Shown here: positions 15,942-63,094 of the stretch, piece by piece | Numbering within the stretch: the first letter of the stretch is position 1 | Layout of the letters: every line of letters starts with the position of its first letter | DNA from: Bacteroidales bacterium | Lineage (GTDB): Bacteria; Bacteroidota; Bacteroidia; Bacteroidales; UBA10428 | Length of the DNA: 64,000 nucleotides | Assembly (NCBI GenBank): GCA_041737175.1 | Contig: JBGSSF010000035.1 | Coordinates: 10,232-74,231, forward strand | Direction: 5' to 3' | Notes under the pieces: model-generated | The model's input: only the letters and a program-made list of their open reading frames with translations | Told to the model about the DNA's origin: nothing | Database searches by the model: none | Position numbers and translations under genes: made by a program

Positions 15942-17981
15942 ATGAAAAGAAATCTACTTTTTCTATCAAACCTTCTGATGTTCTCCCTGATTTTGATGCA
16001 GGGGGTGAGGTCACAGACAACGGTGCTTGACATTATTGTCGGCAGTGCGGATCATGACACCCTGGAAGCCGCAGTTATTGCGGCCGGACTGGACGACGAC
16101 CTTGCAGGGACAGGGCCTTTCACAGTTTTTGCTCCAACCGATGCGGCCTTTAAAGCATTGCCCCTGAATGCACTGGATGCCTTGCTGGAGGATCCGGAAG
16201 GATTCCTGGCTGATCTGCTGCTAAATCATGTGGTAAACGGAACACTGATGGCGGGGGATCTCACAAATGAACAGGTTCTGACAACTTTGCTGGATGAAGA
16301 TGTAACGGTGACCATCAATGATGATGGAGTATTTATTAACAATGCAATGGTCACTGTCGCTGACCTGGAGGCCGATAACGGTGTTGTGCATGTGGTAGAT
16401 GCCGTGATCATTCCTAGTTTTAATACCGTTATGGATATTATTATATTCAGTCCTGAACATGATACACTGGAACTTGCTGTGGGTTTAGCCGAACTGGATG
16501 ATGACCTAGTCGGGGAAGGACCTTTCACCGTCTTCGCACCCACCGATGCTGCTTTCAAGGCACTGCCCGCAGGAACAATTGAAGCGTTGCTGGGAGATCC
16601 CACCGGTGACCTGGCCGATATTCTCCTCTATCACGTTGCAGCCGGGAAGGTCATGTCTGGAGATCTGTCTGACGGACAGGAAATTGTTACTCTGCTGGAC
16701 AGGGAGGTTAACGTAACCATTAGCGAGGAGGGTGTCTTCATCAATAACGCGAAAGTTTTTGTCGCAGATATTGTTGCTGACAATGGCGTGGTTCATGTGT
16801 TGGATGCCGTTTTGATCCCGCAGGCCGAAACGGTTGTGGATATTATTGTAGGTAGTGCTGCGCACGACACTCTCGAAGCTGCCGTGATTGCTGCCGAATT
16901 GGCTGACGACCTGGCAGGCGAAGGCCCCTTTACCGTTTTTGCACCCACCGATGCTGCTTTCAAGGCACTTCCCGCAGGAACAATTGAAGCGTTGCTGGAA
17001 GATCCCACCGGTGACCTGGCCGATATTCTCCTTTATCACGTTGCAACCGGGAAGGTCATGTCTGGAGATCTGTCTGACGGACAGGAAATTACCACACTCC
17101 TGGGCAAGGATGTTACCGTAACCATTAACGAGGACGGTGTCTTTATCAATGATGCCAAAGTCATTCTTGCTGACCTGCTTGCCGATAATGGTGTAGTGCA
17201 TGTTATTGATGCCGTGTTGATACCTGCAGTCGAAGAGGCCGCTTTCCCGATCGACTTTGAAACCGAAACGGATGCCGTGTGGGAAGTTTTTGCCAATGGC
17301 ACAGGAAGTGCGTCTGATTTTGAAGTAATCGCCAATCCGGATAAATCAGGCGTCAATACTTCGGACAATGTACTGAAATTCGTTGTTAATGCCAATGCAG
17401 ATACCTATGCAGGCGCTTTCTCGAATTCCTATGCACCCGTCGAATTCACCCAGTCTTCCCATACCATTACCCTGATGGTCTGGAAATCCGTAATCAGTCC
17501 GGTAGGATTCAAAGTCGAAGCCAGTACGAACGGCGGTCCCGTCACGGAGGTCAAGGTTTCCAATACGGTTACCAACGCATGGGAATTGCTCACGTTTAAC
17601 ATGAGTGCATGCATCGGCTATTCCTATGACAGGATCGTGATATTCCCTGATTTTCCGGAAACCAGGACAGCCGGTACCACGGTTTATATTGATAACATTG
17701 AGAGAAAAGAGGAAGCTACCGGAATACTGAACCTGGACGAAGATTCCAAGGGTCTTACCATCTACCCGAATCCGGCTTCCGGTTATATCCGGCTGTCAGG
17801 TCTCGGGGACCTGAAGGAAGGGATGATGCGGATCATTAATACCGGCGGCGTAGAAGTTGAGAACCGTTTTGTAAAGGATCTCTCTGGCACTATCGATGTC
17901 AGCAGGCTTGATCAGGGGGCCTATTTCCTGATACTTGAGTCCGGAAGCAACCGTTATACCGGAAAACTGTTCAAAAAGTAA
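15942..17981 (+). CDS. secreted protein with three tandem FAS1 (fasciclin) domains, a beta-sandwich domain and a T9SS C-terminal sorting domain
   Basis: The track ORF opens at a TTG (15900). The ATG at 15942 gives MKRNLLFLSNLLMFSLILMQG, a signal peptide. There are three ~135-aa repeats with GPFTVFAPTDAAFKALP and NGVVHV.DAV.IP. The C-terminus LTIYPNPASGYIRL...YTGKLFKK is a type-A T9SS CTD. Confidence 0.8.
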   Translation: MKRNLLFLSNLLMFSLILMQGVRSQTTVLDIIVGSADHDTLEAAVIAAGLDDDLAGTGPFTVFAPTDAAFKALPLNALDALLEDPEGFLADLLLNHVVNGTLMAGDLTNEQVLTTLLDEDVTVTINDDGVFINNAMVTVADLEADNGVVHVVDAVIIPSFNTVMDIIIFSPEHDTLELAVGLAELDDDLVGEGPFTVFAPTDAAFKALPAGTIEALLGDPTGDLADILLYHVAAGKVMSGDLSDGQEIVTLLDREVNVTISEEGVFINNAKVFVADIVADNGVVHVLDAVLIPQAETVVDIIVGSAAHDTLEAAVIAAELADDLAGEGPFTVFAPTDAAFKALPAGTIEALLEDPTGDLADILLYHVATGKVMSGDLSDGQEITTLLGKDVTVTINEDGVFINDAKVILADLLADNGVVHVIDAVLIPAVEEAAFPIDFETETDAVWEVFANGTGSASDFEVIANPDKSGVNTSDNVLKFVVNANADTYAGAFSNSYAPVEFTQSSHTITLMVWKSVISPVGFKVEASTNGGPVTEVKVSNTVTNAWELLTFNMSACIGYSYDRIVIFPDFPETRTAGTTVYIDNIERKEEATGILNLDEDSKGLTIYPNPASGYIRLSGLGDLKEGMMRIINTGGVEVENRFVKDLSGTIDVSRLDQGAYFLILESGSNRYTGKLFKK

Positions 17982-22635: not shown

Positions 22636-22764
22636 CACAAGCCTAATGATGCGCAGCTGCGCTGCATTCATTTTTTATTTGCTTCCACCAGGATGGCACA
22701 GGAAGTGCCCTCCTGGTGTAAACAAATAAAAAATGCCGCCAAAGGCGGCATCATTAGTCTTGTG
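22636..22764. repeat. 129-bp nested palindromic element abutting the 3' end of tRNA-Arg
   Basis: Outer arms are CACAAGCCTAATGATGC and GCATCATTAGTCTTGTG. Each side carries its own GC hairpin (GCGCAGCTGCGC; GCCGCCAAAGGCGGC). The central 31-bp stem at 22669..22735 has 3 mismatches and an AGGAA loop. Confidence 0.7.
22725..22752 (-). terminator. rho-independent terminator of tRNA-Arg
   Basis: The minus strand reads GATGCCGCC-TTT-GGCGGCATTTTTTATTTG immediately after the tRNA 3' end. Confidence 0.55.
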
Positions 22765-22836
22765 ACCCCGGAGGGATTCAAACCCCCGACTTTCAGAACC
22801 GGAATCTGACGTTCTATTCAGCTGAACTACGGGGCC
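22763..22836 (-). tRNA. tRNA-Arg (anticodon CCG)
   Basis: Folded by hand as a 74-nt cloverleaf: acceptor GGCCCCG/CGGGGTC, D stem GTTC/GAAC, anticodon stem TCAGA/TCTGA with loop TTCCGGT, T stem GGGGG/CCCTC. No encoded CCA. Confidence 0.9.
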
Positions 22837-22842
22837 GGAATG

Positions 22843-22870
22843 GTAGGGACAGGTCGCGACCTGTCCCTAC
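22843..22870. repeat. REP copy 1 (28-bp perfect palindrome)
   Basis: GTAGGGACAGGTCG|CGACCTGTCCCTAC, 6 nt upstream of the tRNA-Arg 5' end. Confidence 0.9.
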
Positions 22871-22885
22871 CTACAATCATGTGCG

Positions 22886-22893
22886 CAAAAATA
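22886..22893 (-). promoter_or_regulatory. -7 box candidate (TATTTTTG) for tRNA-Arg
   Basis: The minus strand reads TATTTTTG, matching TAnnTTTG, about 50 nt upstream of the mature tRNA 5' end. This would place REP copy 1 in the transcribed leader. Confidence 0.3.
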
Positions 22894-22937
22894 GAGAAAA
22901 TTGGGGGAAGGACAAATAAAATGCACGGAATATTAAT

Positions 22938-22983
22938 GTAGGGACAGGTCGCTTTGTAGGGACAGGTCGCGACCTGTCCCTAC
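22938..22983. repeat. REP half-copy plus REP copy 2
   Basis: GTAGGGACAGGTCGC (half copy), then ttt, then the full 28-bp palindrome at 22956..22983. Confidence 0.9.
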
Positions 22984-23081
22984 GTAGACGATCATCTTTA
23001 TAAAATTTGCAAATCAGAATTGAAATATTTGATTAATTTTATTTAATAATGATGGTATTATGTTAAAGGCAATTTTATATA

Positions 23082-23621
23082 ATGAAAAATCGCAAACCAA
23101 ACAGATTACGGGGATTTGATTATTCATCGGATAATCTATATTTTGTTACGGCCTGTGTACATAACAGGATTTGTTGTTTCGGGGAAATCGTAGGGACAGG
23201 GCGCGACCTGTCCCTACCATGTCTCGACATATCCTCTCGACATATGATTTTAAATGAATGTGGTAAAATCGCAGAAAAGCAATGGTTTTGGATGGAAGAA
23301 CAATATCCATACATTGTTTTGCATGAATTTGTTGTTATGCCCAATCATATTCATGGGATAATTGAAATAATTCGTTCACGCGTTGTAGGGACAGGTCGCG
23401 ACCTGTCCCTACAGAAAATCAAATCATTATCGGAATTAATGGGGGCATATAAAACGACAGTTTCAAAACAACTACATTCGTCCGGATTTATTGATTTCAA
23501 TTGGCAAAGGTCGTTTTATGACCATATTATTCGCAATCAAAAATCGTACGAATCAATCTCGGAATATATTGTGAACAATCCATCAAATTGGGATCAGGAT
23601 GATTTTTTTACGAACAAATGA
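23082..23621 (+). CDS. IS200-like Y1 (HUH) transposase / REP-associated tyrosine transposase (RAYT)-like
   Basis: 179 aa. N-terminus RLRGFDYSSDNLYFVTACVHNR, HUH motif MPNHIHGII, catalytic-Tyr context NWQRSFYDHIIRN. REP palindromes flank it on both sides. Confidence 0.8.
   Translation: MKNRKPNRLRGFDYSSDNLYFVTACVHNRICCFGEIVGTGRDLSLPCLDISSRHMILNECGKIAEKQWFWMEEQYPYIVLHEFVVMPNHIHGIIEIIRSRVVGTGRDLSLQKIKSLSELMGAYKTTVSKQLHSSGFIDFNWQRSFYDHIIRNQKSYESISEYIVNNPSNWDQDDFFTNK
23190..23217. repeat. REP copy 3, inside the RAYT CDS (1 mismatch)
   Basis: GTAGGGACAGGGCGCGACCTGTCCCTAC, read in frame as VGTGRDLSL (codons 37-45). Confidence 0.9.
23385..23412. repeat. REP copy 4, inside the RAYT CDS (perfect)
   Basis: In the same codon phase as copy 3. 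It encodes VGTGRDLSL (codons 102-110), ten residues after the HUH motif. Confidence 0.9.
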
Positions 23622-23633
23622 ACGAATCGATAT

Positions 23634-23661
23634 GTAGGGACAGGTCGCGACCTGTCCCTAC
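23634..23661. repeat. REP copy 5 (perfect)
   Basis: Begins 13 nt after the RAYT stop. Its last 4 nt overlap the GH43 gene and supply that gene's TAG stop codon. Confidence 0.9.
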
Positions 23662-25265
23662 GGTTTATATTCAAACCAATCAAAGTACGCCGGGGTTGCT
23701 TTGGATTTGGCATTCCCTTCGGCAAACATTCCCAAATATACCCCGGTAAAACCTCCGGCTACTTCGGATGACAGATACCTTGATTCCATTTTGCCGGCCG
23801 GAATGAATTCACTGGCCCCTTCCGGTAAATAGCTGAACGTATACCATAACGGTTCAGCAGTTATCTTGATTTGAACAGGTCCCGCCGGCAACGGGGCTTT
23901 AAAGGCAACATGCTTCAGGTTGCCGATCCGGTAACTTAAAGTAATAAATTTCTTTTCTCCGTCCCTGATAATATGTAGGTCATAGTGATGCTTTTCATTC
24001 ATCAACACGGTAATCCCCGCCGTTTCGCCTTCGGCAGACGGTTCAAATTCCAGTTTTGCCGTTGCCGTGCAGTTAAAATGCTGCTGGCGCCTGCCCACAA
24101 AGGCAGGGGAGGATGACTGGTCAAGGGTCACGGAATTTCCTGCCAGGGTCAGAAATCCGGGTCTTTCAGCCAGTGACCATGTTGCCGGATCAGGATTCCG
24201 CAGGAAATTCCAGCAAAGGTTCAGTTGCGATTTATCAAATTCATCACGCACCAATGGCCGGGCAACGGAAACCAGGGGAAGCGTTTTAACCTTGATATCA
24301 GGACTGACGATATCATCAGCACTCACAACAGGCCATCCCTGCGCATTCCAGGTAACGGGTGTTAAAAAGGTTTCCCTGCCCAGGTGGTGAAAATCTCCGC
24401 CGGCCTTCCGGAATGCAAGGAATACCATCCACCATGAGCCATCATGCGCTTCAATGATGTCGGCATGCCCGGTTCCCTGAACCTGCAGATATTGTCCGGG
24501 TAAACCCCTGTGGGTGAGTATGGGATTGTCGGGATTGGATTCATAAGGCCCCCAGATGCTTTTACTCCGGGCAATGGTCTCCATGTGACCGTATTCGGTG
24601 CCTCCCTCGGCGATCATCAGGTAGTACCAACCGTTGATCCTATAAATATGGGGCGCTTCGGGGTAACGGCCTCCCGTCCCTCCCCAGATATGCCTTATGG
24701 GTGAAAGGATATCGCCGGTTGCAAGGTCTATCTCCGAAAGGGCGATGCCGGTTTTCCCGTCAGCCATGGCATTGGTAACCAGATAATTCTTGCCATCATC
24801 ATCAAAAAACAGGGTGGGATCGATACCTCCCTGATTGACCCATACGGGCTCAGACCATTCTCCCGCAGGATCCTGTGTATGCACATAAAAGTTACCCTTG
24901 CCGGATACATTCGTCGTTACCATGTAAAACGTGCCCTTGTTGTACCGGATCGTAGGGGCGTAAATGCCCCCGGAGCTACGGCATTTGTCGAGCGGCAGCT
25001 GTGAATTTCGGGTAAGACAATACCCGATATGCTCCCAGTTGATCAGATCCTTGCTGTGATATACCGGTACACCCGGGAAGTACTCAAAGGTGCTGGTCAC
25101 CAGGTAATAATCATCGCCCACCCTGCAAACGCTGGGATCGGGATTGAAACCGGGGATGACGGGGTTGGGGAGGGTGGTGGAAGGAGCAACAACATCGCCC
25201 TGTTGGGTATGTATTGAGAAAATAACACCAAACAGGAAGATGAAATTCAAAAAGAGTGATTTCAT
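23658..25265 (-). CDS. GH43 glycoside hydrolase (beta-xylosidase/alpha-L-arabinofuranosidase type) with a C-terminal beta-sandwich domain
   Basis: The ATG at 25265 gives MKSLFLNFIFLFGVIFSIHTQ, a signal peptide. GFNPDPSVCRVGDDYYLV, APTIRY and YLMIAEGGT are GH43 five-bladed propeller motifs. The C-terminal ~200 aa look like a GH43_C2/LamG domain. Confidence 0.85.
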   Translation of the reverse strand: MKSLFLNFIFLFGVIFSIHTQQGDVVAPSTTLPNPVIPGFNPDPSVCRVGDDYYLVTSTFEYFPGVPVYHSKDLINWEHIGYCLTRNSQLPLDKCRSSGGIYAPTIRYNKGTFYMVTTNVSGKGNFYVHTQDPAGEWSEPVWVNQGGIDPTLFFDDDGKNYLVTNAMADGKTGIALSEIDLATGDILSPIRHIWGGTGGRYPEAPHIYRINGWYYLMIAEGGTEYGHMETIARSKSIWGPYESNPDNPILTHRGLPGQYLQVQGTGHADIIEAHDGSWWMVFLAFRKAGGDFHHLGRETFLTPVTWNAQGWPVVSADDIVSPDIKVKTLPLVSVARPLVRDEFDKSQLNLCWNFLRNPDPATWSLAERPGFLTLAGNSVTLDQSSSPAFVGRRQQHFNCTATAKLEFEPSAEGETAGITVLMNEKHHYDLHIIRDGEKKFITLSYRIGNLKHVAFKAPLPAGPVQIKITAEPLWYTFSYLPEGASEFIPAGKMESRYLSSEVAGGFTGVYLGMFAEGNAKSKATPAYFDWFEYKP

Positions 25266-25300
25266 AGTATTGGATTTAGTTTGTTTATTTTTTAATATCA

Positions 25301-25350
25301 CCCTTGAAGGGTCCCCAGACCCTTCAAGGGTCTAAGGACCGCTTGAAGGG
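25301..25350. repeat. hairpin repeat, CCCTTGAAGGGTC family (locus A)
   Basis: CCCTTGAAGGGTC-ccca-GACCCTTCAAGGG followed by TCTAAGGACCGCTTGAAGGG. A 32-mer here recurs at 37700..37731 with 1 mismatch. Confidence 0.8.
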
Positions 25351-31556: not shown

Positions 31557-32855
31557 ATGAAAAAATTCCTTTGGATCATTTCGACAGTCACTGCGCTGGC
31601 GCTGGTTGCAGCCGCTGTATACTGGTATTTGCTTCCGGATTTGAAAAGCATTACGCAGCAGGAACCGGCCATTGAACAGGCTGCTTCAGGTGAGTCTGTG
31701 GCCAGGATTTACGGCCTCGCGGTGGATTCTTTCACGATTGAATCCGATAAAGTGGGCAGGGATCAGAACCTGGGGCAGATACTCAACCGATATTCACTGC
31801 CGGAACGCGCACTGACCCAGCTCCTGTTGTATGCGGACAATGTTTTTGACGTCCGAAAAATACGGCAGGGAAATAATTATACGGCTTTCCTTTCGAAGGA
31901 TTCACTCAGCCGGCTTCAATATTTTGTGTATGAACATTCCCCTATCGAATATGTGGTTTTCGATTTCACGGACAGCGTGAAAATTTATCTCCGTGAAAAA
32001 GAAGTGGTCACCAGGCAGAAAAGGGTAAATGGTGAGATCATCACTTCTCTTTGGGATGCGGTCACCCGGAATAACATCAATCCGCAGGTTGCCCTCGAAT
32101 TGTCGGAAATGTACGCATGGACCGTGGATTTCTTTGGATTGCAGCCCGGTGATCATTTCGCCGTGGTTTACGATGAGCTTTATGTAGATACCATTTCAAT
32201 AGGACTCGGTCGTATTCATGCCGCCAGCTTTCATCACGTGGGAAAGGAATTACTGGCCATACCGTTTATGCAGGACAGTGTAGAAACTTATTTTGATGCA
32301 GACGGGAACAGCCTGAGGCGTGCGTTTTTAAAAGCTCCGCTCAAATTCAACAGGATATCCTCCAGGTTTTCGGGAAGCCGTTTGCATCCCATTCTGAAGA
32401 TCCGGCGTCCGCATTATGGCGTGGATTACGCCGCCCCGATCGGCACGCCGGTTCATGCCATTGGTGATGGCCGGGTCATGCTGGCAGGGTATCAAAGCGG
32501 TGCCGGAAGAATTGTAAAAGTAAGGCATAATGCGGTCTACACATCAACTTATATGCATCTTAGCGGTTTCGGTAAAGGAATTGCGACCGGAACCTATGTC
32601 AAGCAGGGTGAATTGCTGGGGTATGTCGGCAGTTCGGGACTCTCAACCGGCCCGCATCTCGATTTCAGGGTAACCATGAATGGCTCCCCCATTGATCCGC
32701 TTAAAATGGTATCACCGCCTGTAGATCCGATAAAGCCTATAAACAGAATGGCTTTCAATTCAGTCAAGATGGCCACCATCGATCTGCTTACCAGCAAGGA
32801 AGAGAACGAAATGGCGGAGGAGTTTATACCGACGGGATTGCCGAAGGATTTTTAA
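31557..32855 (+). CDS. M23-family peptidoglycan metalloendopeptidase
   Basis: 432 aa with an N-terminal TM anchor. HYGVDYAAPIGTPVHAIGDGRV and GSSGLSTGPHLDFRV are the M23 Zn-ligand motifs. Confidence 0.85.
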   Translation: MKKFLWIISTVTALALVAAAVYWYLLPDLKSITQQEPAIEQAASGESVARIYGLAVDSFTIESDKVGRDQNLGQILNRYSLPERALTQLLLYADNVFDVRKIRQGNNYTAFLSKDSLSRLQYFVYEHSPIEYVVFDFTDSVKIYLREKEVVTRQKRVNGEIITSLWDAVTRNNINPQVALELSEMYAWTVDFFGLQPGDHFAVVYDELYVDTISIGLGRIHAASFHHVGKELLAIPFMQDSVETYFDADGNSLRRAFLKAPLKFNRISSRFSGSRLHPILKIRRPHYGVDYAAPIGTPVHAIGDGRVMLAGYQSGAGRIVKVRHNAVYTSTYMHLSGFGKGIATGTYVKQGELLGYVGSSGLSTGPHLDFRVTMNGSPIDPLKMVSPPVDPIKPINRMAFNSVKMATIDLLTSKEENEMAEEFIPTGLPKDF

Positions 32856-32856
32856 C

Positions 32857-33021
32857 GGATTACTTCGTGATCCCTGCGGGGGTGATCCCAGCAAAAGAAA
32901 ATAAATCCCCCTCCGTTGCTGCGCAACGGGTGAATGATAAATGCAAATGGATTACTTCGTGATCCCTGCGGGGGTGATCCCAGCAAAAGAAAATAAATCC
33001 CCCTCCGTTGCTGCGCAACGG
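32857..33021. repeat. two perfect 73-bp direct repeats separated by 19 bp
   Basis: 32857..32929 and 32949..33021 are identical: GGATTACTTCGTGATCCCTGCGGGGGTGATCCCAGCAAAAGAAAATAAATCCCCCTCCGTTGCTGCGCAACGG. Each contains the hairpin CCGTTGC-tgc-GCAACGG. Confidence 0.9.
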
Positions 33022-33031
33022 TCGGTCTTTT

Positions 33032-33076
33032 CCCATAAAAAAAGGCCTCAAACGGAGTTTGGGCCTTTTTTATGGG
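33032..33076. terminator. bidirectional terminator-like palindrome between the M23 gene and tRNA-Ser
   Basis: CCCATAAAAAAAGGCCTCAAAC-gga-GTTTGGGCCTTTTTTATGGG. A GC-containing stem is flanked by A/T runs on both strands. Confidence 0.55.
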
Positions 33077-33114
33077 AAAATCCCGAGCTTCGCCGGGGGA
33101 TTTATTTTCTTTTG

Positions 33115-33202
33115 CGGAGAGAATGGGATTCGAACCCATGAACCGCTTTTGGCGATTACACACTTTCCAGGCGTGCGCCTTCGACCACTCGGCCATCTCT
33201 CC
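33115..33202 (-). tRNA. tRNA-Ser (anticodon GGA)
   Basis: 88 nt: GGAGAGA acceptor, anticodon stem CACGC/GTGTG with loop CTGGAAA, a long variable arm, and T arm ATGGG-TTCGAAT-CCCAT. Confidence 0.9.
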
Positions 33203-37699: not shown

Positions 37700-37776
37700 G
37701 ACCCTTCAAGGGTCTTAGGACCGCTTGAAGGAATCTTCAAAGACCGCTTGAAAAATCTTCAAAGACCGATTGAAGG
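37700..37776. repeat. tandem array of three hairpins, CCCTTGAAGGGTC family (locus B)
   Basis: GACCCTTCAAGGGTCTTAGGACCGCTTGAAGG, then AATCTTCAAAGACCGCTTGAA, then AAATCTTCAAAGACCGATTGAAGG. Each unit is a CTTCAA...TTGAAG hairpin. Confidence 0.8.
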
Positions 37777-49406: not shown

Positions 49407-50579
49407 TTAATAATACCGACCAATCATTGGATGATCAACGATCATTCTTTTCAACGCCATCAGATCCACCGAACCCTGTATGGAATAAACGACCCTGCCC
49501 CCGGGCTCCACAAGAATACTGTAAGGCAATGCCCCGTTCCATGCAGGATCAATGGCCTCGATCAATGCGTATTTATCATCGCTGTCAAAAATGTAATTTT
49601 GGATGGCTGCATTTCTGGATTTCAGAAATTCCAGGGCTTGTTCCGACTGACCGGGTTTATCGGCAGAAACAGATATGAACTCAAAATTCCTGTTTCCAAA
49701 CATACGCTGTAAATTCACCAGTTCGGGAAACTCAATGATGCAAGGACCACACCAGGTAGCCCAAACGTTGATCAATCTCAGCTTCTTCGATGGGTTGATG
49801 ATTAATTCTGTAATTTCCTTTTTTGAGATTTTATCCAGCGTAACGGGTTTGCTATTCCACTCCGCATTGACTTTATCTGTCCATTCAGTCTTCCAGGCCC
49901 ATTTAATGGAACAACCGAAAGCTTTATTTACCGGTGTGGATACAGGTTGACCGCTGATCGTAGCTTCAACGGCTGTTCTCAGATCTTCCGCATTCGCGGT
50001 TCCCGGTTTTTCAGAAGCATCTAACCGACCCGAATAGACCAGTTCCCGATTTTTGTTGAACACAAAAGCATGCGGTGTCGCAGTGGGCCCATACTGCATG
50101 GAGACAACCTCAACATCACCATCATACAAATAGGGGAAATTGAATTTTTTATCTTTTGCCCTGATGATCATACTTTCGTAAGTATCATCCAGATCTGAAT
50201 ATCCGCATTCCTCAAGCAGGAGAGCCAGGGAACTGTTAGGCATAATGGCCACGACGGATACGCCCCTTTCCATGTAATCCGTGGTAAACTGTATGATACG
50301 GTCCTCATATGCCTGGGCAGTAGGACAATGATTGCAGGTAAAAATCACGACCAGGATGTCTGCCTTGTCAAAATCGCTAAGCTGGAAGTATTTTCCCGAT
50401 ACATCAGGAAGGTTAAAATCAACTGCCTTTGCTCCGGTGGCCAGGGTATGGATATCACGTTCCTCTACCCGCTGCGGTGAGGGTACAAAGCCCTGCCGTT
50501 TGCACGCCAGGGTTGCAGAAATAAACAATGCCAAAATCAGGAAAGGCATTTTGCCGTGAGTTTTTAACAGAATTTCCAT
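49407..50579 (-). CDS. two-domain thioredoxin-fold (TlpA/redoxin-like) lipoprotein
   Basis: 390 aa. An alternative start at 50549 gives MPFLILALFISATLAC (lipobox). CxxC motifs are CNHCPTAQ and WATWCGPC. Confidence 0.75.
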   Translation of the reverse strand: MEILLKTHGKMPFLILALFISATLACKRQGFVPSPQRVEERDIHTLATGAKAVDFNLPDVSGKYFQLSDFDKADILVVIFTCNHCPTAQAYEDRIIQFTTDYMERGVSVVAIMPNSSLALLLEECGYSDLDDTYESMIIRAKDKKFNFPYLYDGDVEVVSMQYGPTATPHAFVFNKNRELVYSGRLDASEKPGTANAEDLRTAVEATISGQPVSTPVNKAFGCSIKWAWKTEWTDKVNAEWNSKPVTLDKISKKEITELIINPSKKLRLINVWATWCGPCIIEFPELVNLQRMFGNRNFEFISVSADKPGQSEQALEFLKSRNAAIQNYIFDSDDKYALIEAIDPAWNGALPYSILVEPGGRVVYSIQGSVDLMALKRMIVDHPMIGRYY

Positions 50580-50658
50580 GGGATTAAATATCAGGTAAAG
50601 GTTATTGTAACGGTTCGAATAAAATTAATGTTTTTTCGTTACATTCGTGGAAGGGACC

Positions 50659-50757
50659 GTATCAAAAGCCAATTTGTTAGGCGGAGTTACAAACTCCGCC
50701 TAGCATAATAAATGGATAATTTGCATGTTACGCTAAGCGTAGTTTGCAACTACGCTT
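50659..50757. repeat. hairpin repeat, TAGGCGGAGT-TACAA-ACTCCGCCTA family (intact copy)
   Basis: GTATCAAAAGCC...TAGGCGGAGTTACAAACTCCGCCTA...TTACGC, followed by AGCGTAGTT-tgc-AACTACGCT. It shares about 75 nt with 53676..54011. Confidence 0.8.
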
Positions 50758-50818
50758 TTCTTTCATTCTTTTAATGCAGTCTCCAAGGGTTATAGTTTAA
50801 AATAAAAGCAAAATAATC

Positions 50819-51475
50819 ATGAAAAAGGCCATCAGCATTTATTTCAGGATAATCGTTGTAATCTTTGCGTTTGCAGGCTGTTCCCATGATAAGGTATATA
50901 CGCAGAACAATCAGACGTTAAGTGAAATCGATCAGAAGGTCAATGCTTTTCTGAAAAGCAAGGAATATGGCTGGCGGGATATGAATGTGCCGGCATCCGA
51001 CGGGAAATTATTATATGATATTATCATTAAAAACAACTATAAGAATGCTGTCGAGATTGGCACTTCCACGGGCCATTCCGCTATCTGGATAGCCTGGGCG
51101 CTCAGCAAGACCGGGGGCAAACTGATCACCATTGAAATTGATGAGAGGCGGTACAAAGAAGCTCTTATCAACTTTGAGAAAGCAGGTGTAGCCCAATATA
51201 TTGATGCCCGCCTGGGCGACGCCCATGACCTGGTGCCTAAGCTGAGCGGCCCTATCGATTTTGTTTTCAGTGATGCGGATAAAGACTGGTATGTCAGTTA
51301 TTTTAAATCGATAGATCCGAAACTCATCGTGGGAGGTTGTTATACAAGCCACAATGTCAGGGAGTATGACGGCCGGCAGTATTATGAATATGTCAGCAGT
51401 CTCCCCAACTATAAAACAACAGTTGATAACCGCGGCGGAGGGATGGCAATAAGCTACAAAACGGCCTTGCGGTAA
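50819..51475 (+). CDS. class I SAM-dependent O-methyltransferase (family 3, CCoAOMT-like) with a lipoprotein signal
   Basis: 218 aa. Lipobox FAFAGC, SAM motif VEIGTSTGHSAIW, and FVFSDADKDWY. Confidence 0.7.
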   Translation: MKKAISIYFRIIVVIFAFAGCSHDKVYTQNNQTLSEIDQKVNAFLKSKEYGWRDMNVPASDGKLLYDIIIKNNYKNAVEIGTSTGHSAIWIAWALSKTGGKLITIEIDERRYKEALINFEKAGVAQYIDARLGDAHDLVPKLSGPIDFVFSDADKDWYVSYFKSIDPKLIVGGCYTSHNVREYDGRQYYEYVSSLPNYKTTVDNRGGGMAISYKTALR

Positions 51476-51478
51476 GGA

Positions 51479-53632
51479 TTATTCCGCCGTGATCTCAATT
51501 ACCGAGCTGGTAAGAGGCTGAAAGGACGTAACATTCAATCCCACGTTCATCAGGTAGTCACCGGTGTACAGCCTTTTTGTCGGGTACAGGCTCATGGTAC
51601 CCGGAAACTGGTTGATTTCCTGAACTGCATAAGTTCTTGCCGCATCAAGACCCTGTAAACGCACATTGTTGAAGTTCTCCCCATACCTCATGTTCATGGT
51701 GTAAGAAAAAAGCAAAGCCTTGTCTTTATCAGGACTGACGTACATCAACACGGCCCGGTTCTCCTTATAAGGCGATATCAGCCTGTAAAGATCGCCACGC
51801 CAGATCACTTCACTCAGCCGCTTGTAATTTTTAACAGCTTCCTGGCAGAATGCCAGTTCCTTTTCATTGAATTCATTCACCTGGATATCAAATCCCATCT
51901 TACCCATCATGGCCACATCGGTCCTGAATTTAACAGATTGTTTTCCCCAGGAGGTAACATGGTTGCAAACCGACAGGGCAGGGAAGAAATAGGAATAGCC
52001 CCATTGTATGTAAATGCGCTCCACGGGATCGGTGTCATCACTGGCCCAGAATTCAGTGAAATAGCGCATGGCGCCATAGTCGACCCTTCCTCCGCCACCT
52101 GAGCACAGCATCATGGGAACATGCCGGTATTTCTGGCGCAGACGGTCAAGTACCCTGTAAAGCCCGTTCACATAATCGATATAGACATGCGATTGCCGGT
52201 CCTTCAGATAGACTGAGTATGTATTGGTCATCATGCGGTTGCAGTCCCATTTAAAGAATGCAAGCCCGGGAAACCGGGTCAGCATGCCATCGACCAGGTC
52301 ATAGACAAAATCCTGAACTTCGGGATTGGTAAGGTCGAGAACGAGCTGGTTCCTGTAATAATGTTCCGGACGGTTGGGAAGTTTCAGAACCCAGTCAGGA
52401 TGCGTTTCATACAACTCACTTTTGGGATTCACCATCTCGGGTTCGATCCAGATGCCGAATTTCACAGCACGTTTTTCTGCCTCCTTCACCAGGTAACCGA
52501 CTCCGTTGGGCAATTTGGTCTTATTCTCCTGCCAGTCGCCCAACCCGGCCCTGTCATTGTTTCGTGGATACTTGTTGGCAAACCAGCCGTCATCGAGCAG
52601 GAACAAATCGAGCCCCATCTTTTTTGTGTCATCGAGCAGGGCGGTGAGTTTTTCCTCATTGAAGTCGAAATAGGTGGTTTCCCAGTTGTTCAGAAGGGTG
52701 AGCCTGGATTCCTTTCCATCCATAATGCCATAATTAATAGCCCAGCGGTGAAGGTTCCGGCTGGCATATCCCTTACCCTGTGCGGAATAGGTGAAGATAA
52801 AGGGGGGCGTGACAAACGATTTTCCCGGTTGCAGTAAATATTCGGAAGCATATGGATTGATTCCCGAAATAACACGGAGCGAGTTTTTTTCATCCACCTC
52901 GAACAGGAACCTGAAGTTACCCGACCAGCCCAGTGTTCCGGCAACCAATTCTCCGGAGTTTTCACCGGATTTTTCATTCAGCGAAAGGAAGAACACGGGT
53001 GTCTGGTACATGTGGGCCCGGGTACCCAGTTTGGAATCGAGGATCTTAATGCCGCTGGAGAGTTCATTCTCCTGCATCTTCATTTCTTCGGCCCAGTCGC
53101 CATGAAACTGGGTAAGCCAGTACTGCGGGGCGTCAAAATGAAGCAACGATGAAGCATAATTGTAAACCGTGACGGGATTCTTTTCCTGGTGAATTATTTC
53201 CACCCATTGCTCCATGACATTCTCGCGGGCAAATGCCTTGAAATGAAGGATCACTTCAACGGGGTACTGCGGATCTTTCAGCCGGATACGGGTGATGGTG
53301 ACATTCTCATCGGATTTTTCGGTCTGGTGATTCACATAATTCAGTTCGAGAGAAGGATTGCCGTCGCTGTGGGTGATCCGAATGGCAGGTTCGAACAGGT
53401 TATCAGTTCCCGAAGTGACATAGGCCAGGTGCGCCGGCCGGGGGAATGTTTTGCTGTCAGGAGTTTGCACCAGCTTCGGACCATAATACACCTGGTATAA
53501 CCGGTGATCATTTCCCACCTTGAAAATCAGGTCGGTATTTTGCGTGCTCACAGGGATCAGGATGTCAGACTGTCCTGAAACGACAGTAATAACTGCAGCG
53601 AAAAGAAAAATGGCGGTACAGATCTTTTTCAT
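51479..53632 (-). CDS. GH36 alpha-galactosidase
   Basis: 717 aa with a signal peptide. FLLDDGWF and FKWDCNR are GH36 catalytic-region motifs. Confidence 0.85.
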   Translation of the reverse strand: MKKICTAIFLFAAVITVVSGQSDILIPVSTQNTDLIFKVGNDHRLYQVYYGPKLVQTPDSKTFPRPAHLAYVTSGTDNLFEPAIRITHSDGNPSLELNYVNHQTEKSDENVTITRIRLKDPQYPVEVILHFKAFARENVMEQWVEIIHQEKNPVTVYNYASSLLHFDAPQYWLTQFHGDWAEEMKMQENELSSGIKILDSKLGTRAHMYQTPVFFLSLNEKSGENSGELVAGTLGWSGNFRFLFEVDEKNSLRVISGINPYASEYLLQPGKSFVTPPFIFTYSAQGKGYASRNLHRWAINYGIMDGKESRLTLLNNWETTYFDFNEEKLTALLDDTKKMGLDLFLLDDGWFANKYPRNNDRAGLGDWQENKTKLPNGVGYLVKEAEKRAVKFGIWIEPEMVNPKSELYETHPDWVLKLPNRPEHYYRNQLVLDLTNPEVQDFVYDLVDGMLTRFPGLAFFKWDCNRMMTNTYSVYLKDRQSHVYIDYVNGLYRVLDRLRQKYRHVPMMLCSGGGGRVDYGAMRYFTEFWASDDTDPVERIYIQWGYSYFFPALSVCNHVTSWGKQSVKFRTDVAMMGKMGFDIQVNEFNEKELAFCQEAVKNYKRLSEVIWRGDLYRLISPYKENRAVLMYVSPDKDKALLFSYTMNMRYGENFNNVRLQGLDAARTYAVQEINQFPGTMSLYPTKRLYTGDYLMNVGLNVTSFQPLTSSVIEITAE

Positions 53633-53675
53633 GGGTTAAAATTAATTAGGGTCAAATATATTAAATGTAGAGGCT

Positions 53676-54011
53676 GTATCAAAAGCCATAATTTTAGGCG
53701 GAGTTACAAATCATAGCCGTCAACTTAAGATCAAACCGCGTTAGCGGTTAAATGTGAATAGCGCCGGGCGGAGCCCGGTGTAACTGGCATTGATGTTTTC
53801 TACAACCACGTAGTGGTTGAATTTAATTGAAATAGCTCTGTCTTGCAATATTCAACCACGCCGTGGTTGTGAAAAATCAGCCTCATATATACACCGGGTT
53901 ATCACCCGGCGCTATTCAAATTAAAGCACTCCGTGCTTTCTAAAATCACATATGTTGACTATGGTTACAAACTCCACCTAGTATAATATAAAGATTATCT
54001 GCGTATTACGC
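53676..54011. repeat. second copy of the TAGGCGGAGT hairpin repeat, split by an insertion
   Basis: The left half ends ...TAGGCGGAGTTACAAA at 53710. The right half resumes GTTACAAACTCCACCTA at 53964. Confidence 0.8.
53711..53963. mobile_element. 253-bp palindromic MITE-like insertion with an 8-bp target-site duplication
   Basis: GTTACAAA is present on both sides (53703..53710 and 53964..53971). Termini are CATAGCCGTCAAC and GTTGACTATG. The interior is a mirror-symmetric series of hairpins (AACCGC/GCGGTT, CCGGG/CCCGG, CAACCAC/GTGGTTG, then their mirror images). Confidence 0.7.
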
Positions 54012-54302
54012 TTACGGGCAATTCTTCAAAAATTTCAGGCTGTAAAAATCCTCCAGGTTATCATCAATGATCAGGGTATCACCCTGTTCCCATTTTTCGA
54101 CATACTGCTTGCCTTTCAGAAAATAACAGCGGGTGCCAGTGGGATTTGTAAACAGCACCCTGTTTTCTTCAACCGCATAAACAACCAGGGCTTTCTGCTT
54201 GTAGAGAGCATCATGCGAATCTTCTATCTTATAGGTGAGCTTATGCATTGCCGTACAGGAGGCAAGCATTGCCAATATCAGAATGGAAAGTCGCCGTGTC
54301 AC
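54012..54302 (-). CDS. small hypothetical lipoprotein
   Basis: 96 aa with a GTG start and lipobox LILAMLASC. It lies 19 nt downstream of the Gfo/Idh/MocA gene. Confidence 0.4.
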   Translation of the reverse strand: MTRRLSILILAMLASCTAMHKLTYKIEDSHDALYKQKALVVYAVEENRVLFTNPTGTRCYFLKGKQYVEKWEQGDTLIIDDNLEDFYSLKFLKNCP

Positions 54303-54321
54303 AGATCCTGTGGTATGAAAA

Positions 54322-55845
54322 TTATAATTTCAGTTCGCCCCAGCCCTGTCTGTAAGTCCGTTTCACAAACTGGTTGGCCGGTTCAAAGTTAGTGATTCGC
54401 ATATTCTCTCCGTCCCATTTGTAGTTGATATATCGGCCGGGGAAGACAAAACCTTCCATCTCGCCGTATACCGGATCAACCCGCTTTATCTTCTCCCGGA
54501 TGTTGAAACTGCGCAACAACAGGTTTCCCATCAGTACGGTTTCGGTAAGTGGACCGGCATATCCTTCGAAGGGTGAGTCCACTTCCATATTCCCATATCC
54601 TGCAATGCAGGCATCTACCCACTGCCACCAGTGGCCATCCATGTCCCCTTCGACACGCGGGTATTTTTTGGGTACTTTAATGATCTCATTCAGTGAAAGG
54701 GGCAGGAGAATAGGATTTCTGCCTCCCCAGCCACAGGCTGCCTTGCCCTTGGTCCCTATGAACAGGGTAGCACCTTCATAATCGAAAAGGCCGGGCCAAT
54801 CGCCCATAATGTCATTCATGTTTTTGTCCGAATCCAGTTCAAGCGGCCTCTCGGGGGTTATTCCTCCGTCCATCCAATAAAGGCGAAGGTCACGGCCGTT
54901 TTGCAGCTTGTAGTTGAACCGTATGGAAGAAGCAACCGGTCCGCTTTCGGGGTATTGGGCTTCAGTAAAGATTCCGTTATACACCGTGCTGGCGCTGCAT
55001 GATACTTCAGTCGGATATCCCAACCCGAGCAGCTTGAACGGAGGCCCCATGATGTGGCATCCCATGTCGCCCAGGGCGCCGGTGCCAAAGCGCCACCAGC
55101 CTCGCCAGTTAAATGGCACCAGGTTATCGATGTATTCGGTATTCTCGGCTGTTCCAAGCCACAGATCCCACTTCAGCTCTTTGGGCACTTTGGGACGCTG
55201 AGTGGGCCAGGGAATTCCCTGCGGCCAAACAGGTCTGTCAGTCCAGCAATATACCTCCTCAATCTCTCCCAGCACGCCTGCTTCAATCCATTCACGCAAG
55301 GTTCTCATGCCTTCGCAGGAAGCGCCCTGATCGCCCATTTGCGTGACCACCTTGTATTTTTTTGCTGCCTGGGTGAGGATACGGGCTTCGTAAATATCGT
55401 GTGACAGAGGTTTTTGCAGGTAAAGGTGTTTGTTCAGTTGCATGGCGCCGAGTCCCATAATGGCATGGTTATGGTCTGGCGTGGCAATGGTAACAGCATC
55501 GAAGTTCTTACTTTCCTTTTCGAACATCTCACGCCAGTCGTAGTAGAATTTGGCCTTGGGAAGTTCCTTGATCTTCTGGGCGGCCTGCCTGTCGTCCACA
55601 TCGCACAGAAAAGCCACTACGGCATTGTTTTTGGGTGCTTTCACATAGTGATCAATGTCAGAGGCGCCTTCTCCCCCGCAACCTATCGCGGCAATATACA
55701 GTTTGTCACTGGGGGCAACATGTCCCAGGCCGCTGATGGTATGGCTCGGCAGGATCGTAAATCCGGCGGCTCCCAGAGCGGTCAAACCAACAAATTCCCG
55801 GCGTGATAACATACCGGAATTTGTTTTTTGATAGTTTATTTTCAT
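54322..55845 (-). CDS. Tat-exported Gfo/Idh/MocA-family oxidoreductase (glycoside 3-dehydrogenase-like)
   Basis: 507 aa. Twin-arginine signal SRREFVGLTALGAAG and Rossmann motif IAAIGCGGEGASD. Confidence 0.85.
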   Translation of the reverse strand: MKINYQKTNSGMLSRREFVGLTALGAAGFTILPSHTISGLGHVAPSDKLYIAAIGCGGEGASDIDHYVKAPKNNAVVAFLCDVDDRQAAQKIKELPKAKFYYDWREMFEKESKNFDAVTIATPDHNHAIMGLGAMQLNKHLYLQKPLSHDIYEARILTQAAKKYKVVTQMGDQGASCEGMRTLREWIEAGVLGEIEEVYCWTDRPVWPQGIPWPTQRPKVPKELKWDLWLGTAENTEYIDNLVPFNWRGWWRFGTGALGDMGCHIMGPPFKLLGLGYPTEVSCSASTVYNGIFTEAQYPESGPVASSIRFNYKLQNGRDLRLYWMDGGITPERPLELDSDKNMNDIMGDWPGLFDYEGATLFIGTKGKAACGWGGRNPILLPLSLNEIIKVPKKYPRVEGDMDGHWWQWVDACIAGYGNMEVDSPFEGYAGPLTETVLMGNLLLRSFNIREKIKRVDPVYGEMEGFVFPGRYINYKWDGENMRITNFEPANQFVKRTYRQGWGELKL

Positions 55846-61301: not shown

Positions 61302-62387
61302 ATGTCATTAAAGATTAACAGCAGAGTATTTGTTTCCTTGCTGGCGTTGTTTTTATGCAATCACTGCAGGAAGGATATTGATACTGATCCCATCATTACT
61401 ATCCGTGATGCTAACTTTCTGAATGTTTTGATAAGTACTGGCGCTGATAAAAACGGTGATGGTAAAATCAGCGTCTCGGAGGCAGAGATGGTAACGGATT
61501 TGTGCCTGAATGCGGCATCCGTTTCTGATATGAGAGGGATACAGGCATTTGCCAATTTGGAAATATTACGTTGTGGCTGGAATAATATTTCCAGTCTGGA
61601 TGTTTCACAAAATGCTGCACTGACTATTCTTGAGTGCCCGATAAACGAATTGACCAGCCTGGATGTTTCACATAATCCTGATTTGGAATATTTGAATTGC
61701 GCTGGTAATAAACTAACAACCCTGGATGTTTCAGGAAATTCAGCTTTACAAATGTTTAATTGCAGCAGTAATAAATTACCCGAATTGGATATTTCCAATA
61801 ATCCGTTATTAACTGCCTTATCATGTGGTGAAAACCAGTTAACATCGCTCGATGTTTCTGGTTTGGATTCATTATCCCATCTAGAATGCTATATAAACCA
61901 GTTAACCAACCTGGATATTTCCAATAATACTGCCCTCGAGATTCTATGGTGCTCTACCAACCAGTTGGCCAGCCTGGATGTTTCAAAAAATAACGCCTTG
62001 ATAAGATTGTGGTGCTATGAAAACCAGTTGACCAGCCTGGATGTTTCATATTGTCCGGATTTGGAATGGTTGAGTTGTGGTATTAACCAATTAACCAGTT
62101 TGGATATTACCAGAAATAGCGCATTAAGTTGGCTGAACTGTTGCTGCAATCAGTTGATGAGCCTGGATCTTTCAAAAAGTGTATTTCTAAGTTCCTTAGA
62201 TTGTAGTTGTAATCAATTAATCGATCTGGATATTTCTGTTAATACCGAGCTGACCAGATTAAGCTCAACTTTTATGCCGTCGTTGAATCACGTTTGTGTT
62301 TGGACAGTGCCTTTCCCACCGGCGGGGTTAACCATCGATACAACGGCCAGCCCGAATGTATTGTTTACCATGGAGTGCAGTAAATAA
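61302..62387 (+). CDS. leucine-rich-repeat lipoprotein
   Basis: 361 aa with lipobox ALFLCNHC. About 11 tandem 22-23-aa LRR units of the form L..L.C..NQLTSLDVS.N. The gene is AT-rich. Confidence 0.75.
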   Translation: MSLKINSRVFVSLLALFLCNHCRKDIDTDPIITIRDANFLNVLISTGADKNGDGKISVSEAEMVTDLCLNAASVSDMRGIQAFANLEILRCGWNNISSLDVSQNAALTILECPINELTSLDVSHNPDLEYLNCAGNKLTTLDVSGNSALQMFNCSSNKLPELDISNNPLLTALSCGENQLTSLDVSGLDSLSHLECYINQLTNLDISNNTALEILWCSTNQLASLDVSKNNALIRLWCYENQLTSLDVSYCPDLEWLSCGINQLTSLDITRNSALSWLNCCCNQLMSLDLSKSVFLSSLDCSCNQLIDLDISVNTELTRLSSTFMPSLNHVCVWTVPFPPAGLTIDTTASPNVLFTMECSK

Positions 62388-62424
62388 TTTGTTTCACTCT
62401 CACTCCGACACCTTAACACCTTAT

Positions 62425-62502
62425 TACTTCATCACTTCATCACTTCATCACTTCATCACCCCTTCACCCAATCACCCCATCACTTCATCACTTCATTACT
62501 TA
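62425..62502. repeat. octamer tandem repeat (CACTTCAT)n, degenerate
   Basis: TACTTCAT (CACTTCAT)x3 CACCCCTT CACCCAAT CACCCCAT (CACTTCAT)x2 TACTTA. It overlaps the last codons and the stop codon of the methyltransferase gene. Confidence 0.85.
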
Positions 62503-63094
62503 CCGCCACCACAAACACCCCTCCTCCTCTGATCTTCTGTGATTGGAGATTTATTCCGGCCTGCCTGGCAAAATGCAAAATGCCACCCTTTTTCATATAT
62601 ATCCTGAAGTTCCGGTAATGGTCACCTCCTGCCATACGTTCAATGGTCCATGCCAGTGACTTTCCCCAACTGCGTGGCATGTGGTGGTTGTAATCAACGA
62701 AGATCAGACTGCGGGCGACCCGCTTCATTTCAGTAAGTATTTTCACCGCAAGGTCAGCATCGAACTGGTGGATGGCCATGGAGGTAACGGCGATATCAAA
62801 TTCATTTTCGGTGTAAAGCGACAGGTCACCGGCATCGTGAATTTCAAAGGAGACGTTGTTTATTGCCTTTCGCCGGGCCACTCGCTTTGCCGCAGCAATG
62901 GCCTCTTCCGAAAGATCTATACCCGTGACATGTTCGGCCTTTTGGGCTATTGCCATGGCCAGCGCGCCGGTGCCGCAGGCTATATCCAGAACGCGGAGTG
63001 ACGGCTCCACTTGTTCCAACACACTCTTATGCAATGGTGCAAGTATGGGATCAATGCAGGCCTGGTAAATGAGAGTTTGAAGGGAGAAGGGCAT
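62480..63094 (-). CDS. class I SAM-dependent methyltransferase
   Basis: The ATG at 63094 gives MPFSLQTL. The track ORF opens at a TTG at 63118. The SAM motif is VLDIACGTGALAMAIA. Confidence 0.75.
   Translation of the reverse strand: MPFSLQTLIYQACIDPILAPLHKSVLEQVEPSLRVLDIACGTGALAMAIAQKAEHVTGIDLSEEAIAAAKRVARRKAINNVSFEIHDAGDLSLYTENEFDIAVTSMAIHQFDADLAVKILTEMKRVARSLIFVDYNHHMPRSWGKSLAWTIERMAGGDHYRNFRIYMKKGGILHFARQAGINLQSQKIRGGGVFVVAVSNEVMK

Follow-up and report, generated by a model that had tools for sequence, protein, structure and literature searches.

How a short, hairpin-filled element came to sit within the loop of another hairpin is the question raised by one locus of the 64,000-nucleotide stretch of Bacteroidales DNA analysed here (hereafter the window). 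The original prediction described a nested insertion of a palindromic, non-autonomous element, and saw in its choice of a hairpin loop a likeness to the single-strand chemistry of HUH/Y1 enzymes. The nested insertion is borne out by the junctions, the target site duplication (TSD), an intact paralogue and further copies of the element. The chemistry is another matter: the element has terminal inverted repeats (TIRs) and a TSD, and the 17-mer that forms its end also flanks genes for IS4-family transposases of the DDE/YREK type. The evidence for each of these points, and for the way in which the target is chosen, is set out below.

An insert of 252/253 bp (53712-53963) divides a hairpin repeat whose uninterrupted paralogue, TAGGCGGAGTTACAAACTCCGCCTA, lies at 50678-50702, where no match is expected by chance. 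The junctions read TAGGCGGAGTTACAAAT/CATAGCCGTCAAC...GTTGACTATG/GTTACAAACTCCACCTA or, taken more widely, ...TTTTAGGCGGAGTTACAAAT/CATAGCCGTCAACTTAAG...CATATGTTGACTATG/GTTACAAACTCCACCTAGTATAAT..., the slashes marking the borders of the insert. The octamer GTTACAAA is present twice, at 53703-53710 and 53964-53971, once on either side. When the insert and one of the duplicates were deleted in silico, the restored locus aligned with 50652-50750 at 78% identity over 101 columns, and 24 of the 25 hairpin positions were the same. Homology outside the hairpin, on which the original prediction depended, is thus found: about 83 nt are common to both loci at 82-83% identity (50652-50734 against 53669-53710 plus 53964-54012). 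The left part of the interrupted repeat (53669-53702, plus strand), which ends in the 5′ hairpin arm TAGGCGGA (53695-53702), is 83% identical to 50652-50693, and the right part (53973-54012, plus strand), with the 3′ arm TCCACCTA, is 82% identical to 50686-50734. The paralogue (50652-50734, plus strand; -11.5 kcal/mol) stands beside genes for a redoxin/thioredoxin protein and an O-methyltransferase, the interrupted copy beside a GH36 alpha-galactosidase gene and a 96-aa ORF. Since the neighbouring genes of the two loci are unrelated, the common stretch of about 83 nt is a dispersed repeat; for the same reason, we rejected the possibility of a paralogous regulatory region. A second solo member of the hairpin family, AAGCGTAGTT TGC AACTACGCTT, adjoins the intact paralogue at 50735-50757 (plus strand). 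The proposal that 50678-50702 represents the pre-insertion state is valid, and an orthologous empty site is described below.

The duplication had been put at 8 bp. That the target was duplicated holds, and its length is better given as 9 bp, with a left copy GTTACAAAT (53703-53711, plus strand) and a right copy GTTACAAAC (53964-53972, plus strand), because every relative has a TIR that begins at CAT, preceded in most copies by a C, the left flank of relatives ending in ...AAC directly before CAT. The two copies agree at 8 of 9 positions, the last base of the left one being unlike that of the right one, and the asymmetric loop TACAA is in direct orientation on both sides. On the best reading of these sequences the duplicated segment would be GTTACAAAC, centred on the dyad and spanning GTT-loop-AAC, of which the left copy now appears as GTTACAAAT.

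The insert qualifies as a true MITE by its TIRs, its lack of an ORF, its six hairpins and its multiple copies. This 252-bp non-coding palindromic element (53712-53963, plus strand) has ends of IS231 type, a word depth of up to 375 against 17 on its flanks, and relatives at 81-89% identity. As had been noted from the sequence, its interior is mirror-symmetric: the arms are mirror images at 68% identity, each with three local hairpins, and no reading frame exceeds 36 codons. Hairpin A (AACCGC GTTA GCGGTT, 53734-53749; depth 340-375) is the most conserved and most repeated part. It is followed by hairpin B (CGCCGGGC GGA GCCCGGTG, 53762-53780), in which the stem is kept and the loop variable among copies, and by hairpin C (CAACCAC GTA GTGGTTG, 53803-53819). 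In the other arm come C′, the mirror of C (CAACCAC GCC GTGGTTG, 53853-53869), B′, the mirror of B (CCGGGT TATC ACCCGG, 53894-53909), and A′ (AAAGCAC TCC GTGCTTT, 53923-53939). B′ was also detected as an inverted repeat. Folded as single-stranded DNA, the whole MITE reaches -76 kcal/mol, with z = -12 against shuffled sequences. No Rfam match was obtained above threshold in 50000-54600 and in five related loci, two chance matches lying far below the gathering score.

The left TIR is CATAGCCGTCAACTTAA (53712-53728, plus strand), and the right one (53950-53963, minus strand) is degenerate, appearing in the alignment of copies as ATATGTTGAC---TATG; the pair reads CATAGCCGTCAACTTAA / (TT)ATGTTGAC---TATG. 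The TIRs had been called imperfect, and they are, with one correction: the right TIR of the window copy, GTTGAC---TATG, has lost 3 nt relative to family members, which have GTTGACGGCAATG there. Another copy in the same genome likewise has the right end GTTGACGGCAATG, without this loss. Relatives have intact TIRs, with CATTGCCGTCAACTTAA at either end in L007a and CATACGCGTCAACTTAA in L002, and the consensus end across aligned copies starts with CAT and reads CAT(A/T)GCCGTCAACTTAA. With the 3-nt deletion in its right TIR, the window copy may no longer be mobile.

Copy number and an empty site were read from two metagenome runs: X1, a hot-spring run containing the window (95% of sampled words), and X2, a freshwater run. 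In X1 the assembler word depth is 16.6-17.1 on the flanks, 99-115 at the left TIR and up to 375 at hairpin A, so that MITE depth is 6-22 times flank depth, and distinct flank-bearing contigs were recovered. These contigs, with other MITE flanks, have depths of 14.8-17.6; therefore the copies, roughly 6-20 in number, sit in the same genome. For the source genome, most of the flanks recovered are one-sided, being loose ends of 30 nt. The subfamily of the ~83-nt repeat counts about 3 copies in this genome (depth ~50 versus 17), and a second member bearing the MITE was found on an 8824-nt contig of X1, which covers 53669-53739 with 8 mismatches. Relatives of the MITE at 81-89% identity were recovered from two uncultured Bacteroidales MAGs (L001, L002, L005, L007 and L008) by scanning species-representative genomes with a 20-mer of hairpin A. 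An orthologous site without the insert is provided by an 843-nt contig of X2, 93% identical over 411 nt on the GH36 side, which runs ...GTTACAAA/CTCCGCCTA, the right hairpin arm following the loop directly. This site could equally stem from precise excision in that lineage; never filled or emptied, either reading implies mobility.

The ends point to a transposase family. The signature of the IS231 subgroup is CAT-------AA--TAA, with direct repeats of 10-12 bp (De Palmenaer et al., PMC2266710 Table 1). The MITE end CATAGCCGTCAACTTAAG fits this signature at every specified position (A11 A12, T15 A16 A17), and the ends of IS231F on plasmid pBTHD789-3 (NC_018510) are CATGCCCATCAACTTAAG on both sides. 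The exact 17-nt TIR was found in more than 120 metagenome contigs among the matches listed, and at least 52 two-ended elements could be delimited with it, comprising MITEs of 100-760 bp and at least 11 elements of 1443-1612 bp. The latter encode single ORFs with hits to DDE_Tnp_1 of Pfam (E 5e-18 to 3e-27) and to NF033592, the IS4 transposase model of NCBIfam (201 bits, cut-off 115); among the matches listed, every coding element with these ends specifies an IS4 DDE transposase. The Y-2-R-3-E-6-K motif is present in 8/8 transposase ORFs examined from TIR-sharing elements. In one of them (L020) it was identified by eye as YGIRWQIEIVFKAWK, the motif scan having picked an earlier chance match. 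The nearest plasmid relatives of these proteins are of Bacillus IS231C/F type, at 30-34% identity over 88-96% of the query. Mutual identity among the TIR-sharing transposases is just 26-59%; the TIR therefore names a clade, not a specific partner.

In agreement with the original prediction, the window holds no IS4-type transposase for the MITE, eight IS4 transposases used as tblastn queries giving noise (E > 0.7), and none was found in the 8-kb MAG loci L001-L008. A full-length parent with matching ends had been suggested as something to look for: same-TIR IS4 elements of 1443-1612 bp exist, and none of those recovered resembles the MITE beyond the TIR. In a BLAST against 128 loci, the matches outside the Bacteroidales MAG copies were confined to the TIR (17-20 nt). 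Movement by means of the ends has a precedent in the MIC231 cassettes, TIR-only elements mobilised by an IS231 transposase (PMC6199540).

In TSD length, the window copy, L002 and L069 agree at 9 bp, and at least 23 TIR-sharing elements range over 9-11 bp, 10 and 11 bp being commonest; the 9 bp of the window copy falls just under the 10-12 bp quoted for the IS231 subgroup. Separately, inverted instead of direct flanks were observed in 8/49 TIR-bounded elements among the matches listed (L014, L024, L071, L073, L074, L076, L094 and L115), and also around IS231F (L129; NC_018510, 14516-16170). These inverted flanks match at 10-12 of 12 positions with no direct duplication, as in GTTTGTGTCCCCAC/IS/GTGGGGACACAAAC and, for IS231F, GGCCTCACCATA/IS/TATGGTGAGGCC. 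They are possibly due to recombination between copies lodged in the same repeated target, by analogy with ISRm22 (PMC1525189). An assembly artefact was rejected as their cause, the flanks carrying mismatches and IS231F showing the same pattern on a finished plasmid.

To get insight into target choice, we considered elements with these ends in general and then the MITE family itself. Clean direct repeats of 9-11 bp surround 23 metagenome elements among the matches listed, and symmetric complementarity around the centre of the TSD amounts to 0.51, compared with 0.26 +/- 0.027 at random sites of the same contigs; 0/2000 controls reach 0.51. Reconstructed empty sites are palindromic, for instance GCAAGGGG-TACAG-CCCCTTGC, GACCCGCC-CCA-GGCGGGTC and CCGGTTCGTG-TCT-CACGAACCGG. 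Palindrome-centred insertion by elements with these ends matches the published behaviour of IS231A, whose target is GGG(N)5CCC; the target table has GGGNNNNNCCC with an 11-bp TSD (PMC2577343 Table 1).

The MITE family is more selective. The question of what flanks the other copies, raised with the original prediction, has a clear answer: 14/16 MITE-family flanks prove to be hairpin arms, all from a single family, GCGNAGTT-loop-AACTNCGC, and all cut at A/GTT...AAC/T. The flanks were drawn from the window, three metagenome runs (X1, X2 and X3) and the MAGs (among them L001, L007 and L008). Left flanks end in ...AGTTACAGAAAC, ...AGTTTTGTTAAC, ...AGTTTTCTTAAC or ...AGCTGTAAAC, and right flanks begin with GTTTTAAAACTCCGCC, GTTTTCTTAACTTCG, GTTAAGAAAACTAC, GTTACGAAAACTACG or GTTAAAAACTTCGCC; in the recovered flanks the duplicated segment spans from GTT, the end of the 5′ arm, to AAC, the start of the 3′ arm. 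Hairpin stems vary among copies (GCGG, GCGT, GCGA) and both loop orientations are present; the insertions are therefore independent and the targeting is real. The same position in the same hairpin family is occupied in L069 by a different, 335-bp MITE with the same TIR and the TSD GTTTGCAAC, and the MAG copy L002 lies in an unrelated palindrome with a perfect 9/9-bp TSD, CCCTCCGGG. Solo hairpins occur in the window at 50681-50699 and 50737-50755, and also in L007, L008 and L069. The 64-kb window contains 3 members of the hairpin family and the MAG loci 5 within 32 kb, where 0.1 would be expected by chance. Judging from one flank and the solo hairpins for most copies, the TSD would be 9, 10 or 11 bp according to loop length.

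As regards genomic context, the GH36 start codon (53632, minus strand) has the MITE 79 bp upstream of it; the MITE is also downstream of the 96-aa ORF, and could affect these neighbouring genes. A scan for sigma-70 promoters and for terminators at the locus gave chance-level results; for promoters of Bacteroidetes type, a search by eye for TAnnTTTG found no clear match there. The window holds other small repeats. Five copies of a perfect 28-nt palindrome, GTAGGGACAGGTCGCGACCTGTCCCTAC, are found at 22843-23670, adjoining tRNA-Arg(CCG) (22762-22836). Amid these palindromes lies a RAYT-like ORF of 179 aa (23082-23621, plus strand) whose product has an HUH-like motif, PNHIHG, and matches Y1_Tnp weakly, at E 0.0011 and short of the Pfam cut-off. 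Two of the palindromes are inside it (23190-23217 and 23385-23412) and are translated in frame as VGTGRDLSL. A 32-nt palindromic repeat, GACCCTTCAAGGGTCT.AGGACCGCTTGAAGG, occurs at 25299-25349 and 37700-37731 with 97% identity. At 32854-33120, a pair of direct repeats of 76 nt (99% identical, with 92 nt between them) and a 35-nt inverted partner look like another small cluster of structured intergenic repeats. Longer arrays comprise three 405-nt tandem repeats (16020-17129) and about nine units of a 63-nt periodic repeat with leucine-rich-repeat-like periodicity (61591-62245), after which comes an 8-nt periodic tract of TCACTTCA-like units (62392-62509).

The hairpins themselves were also met elsewhere. 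In an Ignavibacteriae MAG (JABFGH010000008; L004, 4853-6030), tandem non-coding repeats of 376-452 bp contain AACCGCGTTAGCGGTT and CAACCACGTTAGTGGTTG, the same two hairpins (A and C) as the MITE arms, in a different phylum and again with no Rfam match. MITE hairpins lie at 1626-1653 and 7565-7586 of L006, and hairpins A and C are found in a planctomycete MAG as well. Three members of the target hairpin family, GAAGTTAAGAAAACTTC, are spaced by about 334 nt in L008 (6352-7043), which suggests that in this Bacteroidales MAG the target hairpin belongs in turn to a longer unit, tandem or clustered.

Could the nested arrangement be only apparent? The hairpin halves might be the outer ends of a single unit of ~336 bp that was amplified whole, solo hairpins then being deletions by recombination between the 9-bp repeats. 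Such a composite would account for at least one further ~83-nt repeat of the source genome with the MITE in the identical place and orientation (the 8824-nt contig of X1), and for an 83-nt subfamily of about 3 copies only. It is at odds with the flanking stems, which differ among copies yet pair with their partners (GCGG/CCGC, GCGT/ACGC, GCGA/TCGC), with copies that share no related sequence outside the hairpin, and with the presence of the MITE in both orientations relative to the loop. Solo hairpins at other loci and in other genomes, and the clean 9-bp TSD of the copy in a different palindrome (L002), tell against it too. We consider a composite origin improbable, outweighed as it is by stems that vary, by insertion in both orientations, by an unrelated MITE in the same target (L069) and by solo hairpins. 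Rather less probable still is the idea that the six-hairpin module is primarily functional, as a structured RNA, a protein-binding array or a terminator/attenuator, its ends being secondary, which would be compatible with transposition by an IS231-type enzyme. Multi-copy status, TIRs, TSD and empty site suffice to explain its spread, no Rfam family matches it, and promoter-like and terminator-like sites are at chance level; these weigh against the conservation of stems with variable loops, the 5′ intergenic position and the recurrence of hairpins A and C in the Ignavibacteriae tandem repeats and the planctomycete MAG.

The HUH/Y1 proposal holds that an IS200/IS605- or RAYT-like enzyme inserted the MITE into the single-stranded loop of an extruded hairpin, and it draws on the insertion point being a hairpin loop, on the wealth of hairpins in the MITE itself and on the RAYT-like ORF with its HIH motif at 23082-23621 (Y1_Tnp E 0.0011, below the Pfam cut-off). 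We give it next to no credence. That ORF goes with another palindrome, GTAGGGACAGGTCGCGACCTGTCCCTAC. The MITE has TIRs and a direct TSD, neither of which IS200/IS605-type elements possess, and its ends are those of IS4-family DDE elements. Elements with the same ends have moreover entered palindromes that differ widely in sequence, each time with 9-11-bp direct repeats.

The anatomy of the MITE, its mobility, the family of its ends and its choice of target are shown by the observations above. On the IS4/IS231 reading, the MITE very probably derives from, and is moved in trans by, an IS4-family DDE transposase of IS231 type. The transposase, presumably encoded elsewhere in the genome, would bind the CATAGCCGTCAACTTAA ends, and the element would be excised by cut-and-paste, as judged from IS231A, Tn5 and Tn10. 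It would then be joined at staggered positions symmetric about the dyad of a short palindrome, and gap repair would duplicate the GTT-loop-AAC segment (9 bp in the window). The palindrome hit is a member of the REP-like dispersed hairpin family GCGNAGTT-loop-AACTNCGC, the preferred target of this MITE family. Targeting of the dyad would reflect the two-fold symmetry of the DDE transpososome on a symmetric, probably bendable duplex rather than attack on a single-stranded loop. The hairpin is the habitual target of the element family, and this well-documented instance of a known behaviour calls for no new transposition chemistry.

The locus offers a natural example of IS4/IS231-type target choice outside Bacillota, with filled, paralogous-empty and orthologous-empty sites. 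It also explains one class of nested intergenic repeats in Bacteroidales genomes, which is useful for annotation, and it advises caution: insertion into a hairpin loop is by itself no evidence for single-strand (HUH) chemistry. More broadly, one invariant 17-bp end is common to a large and diverse set of environmental ISs and MITEs, all homing to palindrome centres. The strict A/GTT...AAC/T cuts and the 9-11-bp duplication make a simple set of substrates for asking how a DDE transpososome measures its target. There is some chance, though a small one, that the IS231-like clade might place its two strand-transfer sites by the hairpin arms and not by a fixed stagger. If so, a DDE transpososome could recognise a REP-like element by its extruded geometry, cruciform or hairpin, and such structure-specific targeting would give the MITE a safe-harbour niche. 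The inverted flanks (8/49 and IS231F) might then arise from insertion into folded targets, not from later recombination.

How does this element compare with known systems? Y1 elements of the IS200/IS605 type lack both TIRs and TSD, and enter single-stranded DNA on the 3′ side of a short specific sequence. As in IS200/IS605 and REP/RAYT systems, hairpins are central here, and another part of the window (22843-23670) has a RAYT-like ORF accompanied by REP palindromes of its own; unlike IS200/IS605 elements, the MITE has TIRs, a 9-bp TSD and IS4-type ends. Correia, RUP and cyanobacterial Nezha-type MITEs are likewise small, non-coding, TIR-bounded, structured, multi-copy, intergenic and sometimes nested. 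Unlike the window MITE, they derive from IS5/IS630/IS200-like families with other TSDs.

With the IS231 subgroup and MIC231 the MITE shares the signature CAT-------AA--TAA (CATGCCCATCAACTTAAG in IS231F, CATAGCCGTCAACTTAAG in the MITE), and the DDE/YREK transposases of TIR-sharing elements are nearest to IS231C/F. The palindromic target duplicated on insertion recalls IS231A, as far as its tabulated site goes (GGGNNNNNCCC, 11-bp TSD), and retention of the ends only, with movement in trans, is known of MIC231 and may be supposed for the MITE on that precedent. In contrast to these elements of Bacillota, the MITE has a Bacteroidales-like host and comes from hot-spring and freshwater metagenomes. 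MIC231 cassettes carry genes, whereas the MITE, at 252 bp, is filled with hairpins and has no passenger genes. Its TSD is 9 bp (9-11 bp in the clade), it targets a single dispersed hairpin family, specifically one whose loop is A/T, and the transposases sharing its TIR are only ~30% identical to those of IS231.

ISs that target REP sequences are the other close parallel. They include ISRm22 (IS4, S. meliloti), IS1397/ISKpn1 (IS3), ISPpu9/10, ISPa11 and IS621 (IS110) (PMC1525189). Among them ISRm22 inserts exactly at the palindromy axis of REP, with direct repeats, and its hybrid flanks were ascribed to recombination between copies; insertion at the REP axis is also on record for members of the IS3 and IS110 families (PMC1525189). 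Like these ISs, the MITE inserts specifically into a dispersed extragenic palindrome, and some copies have hybrid flanks. It differs in being a MITE and not a full IS, in its palindrome family and host phylum, and in a TSD that covers the whole loop and 3 bp of each arm. The insert is thus a MITE of Bacteroidales that bears IS4/IS231-type ends and targets a REP-like hairpin, a behaviour already known.
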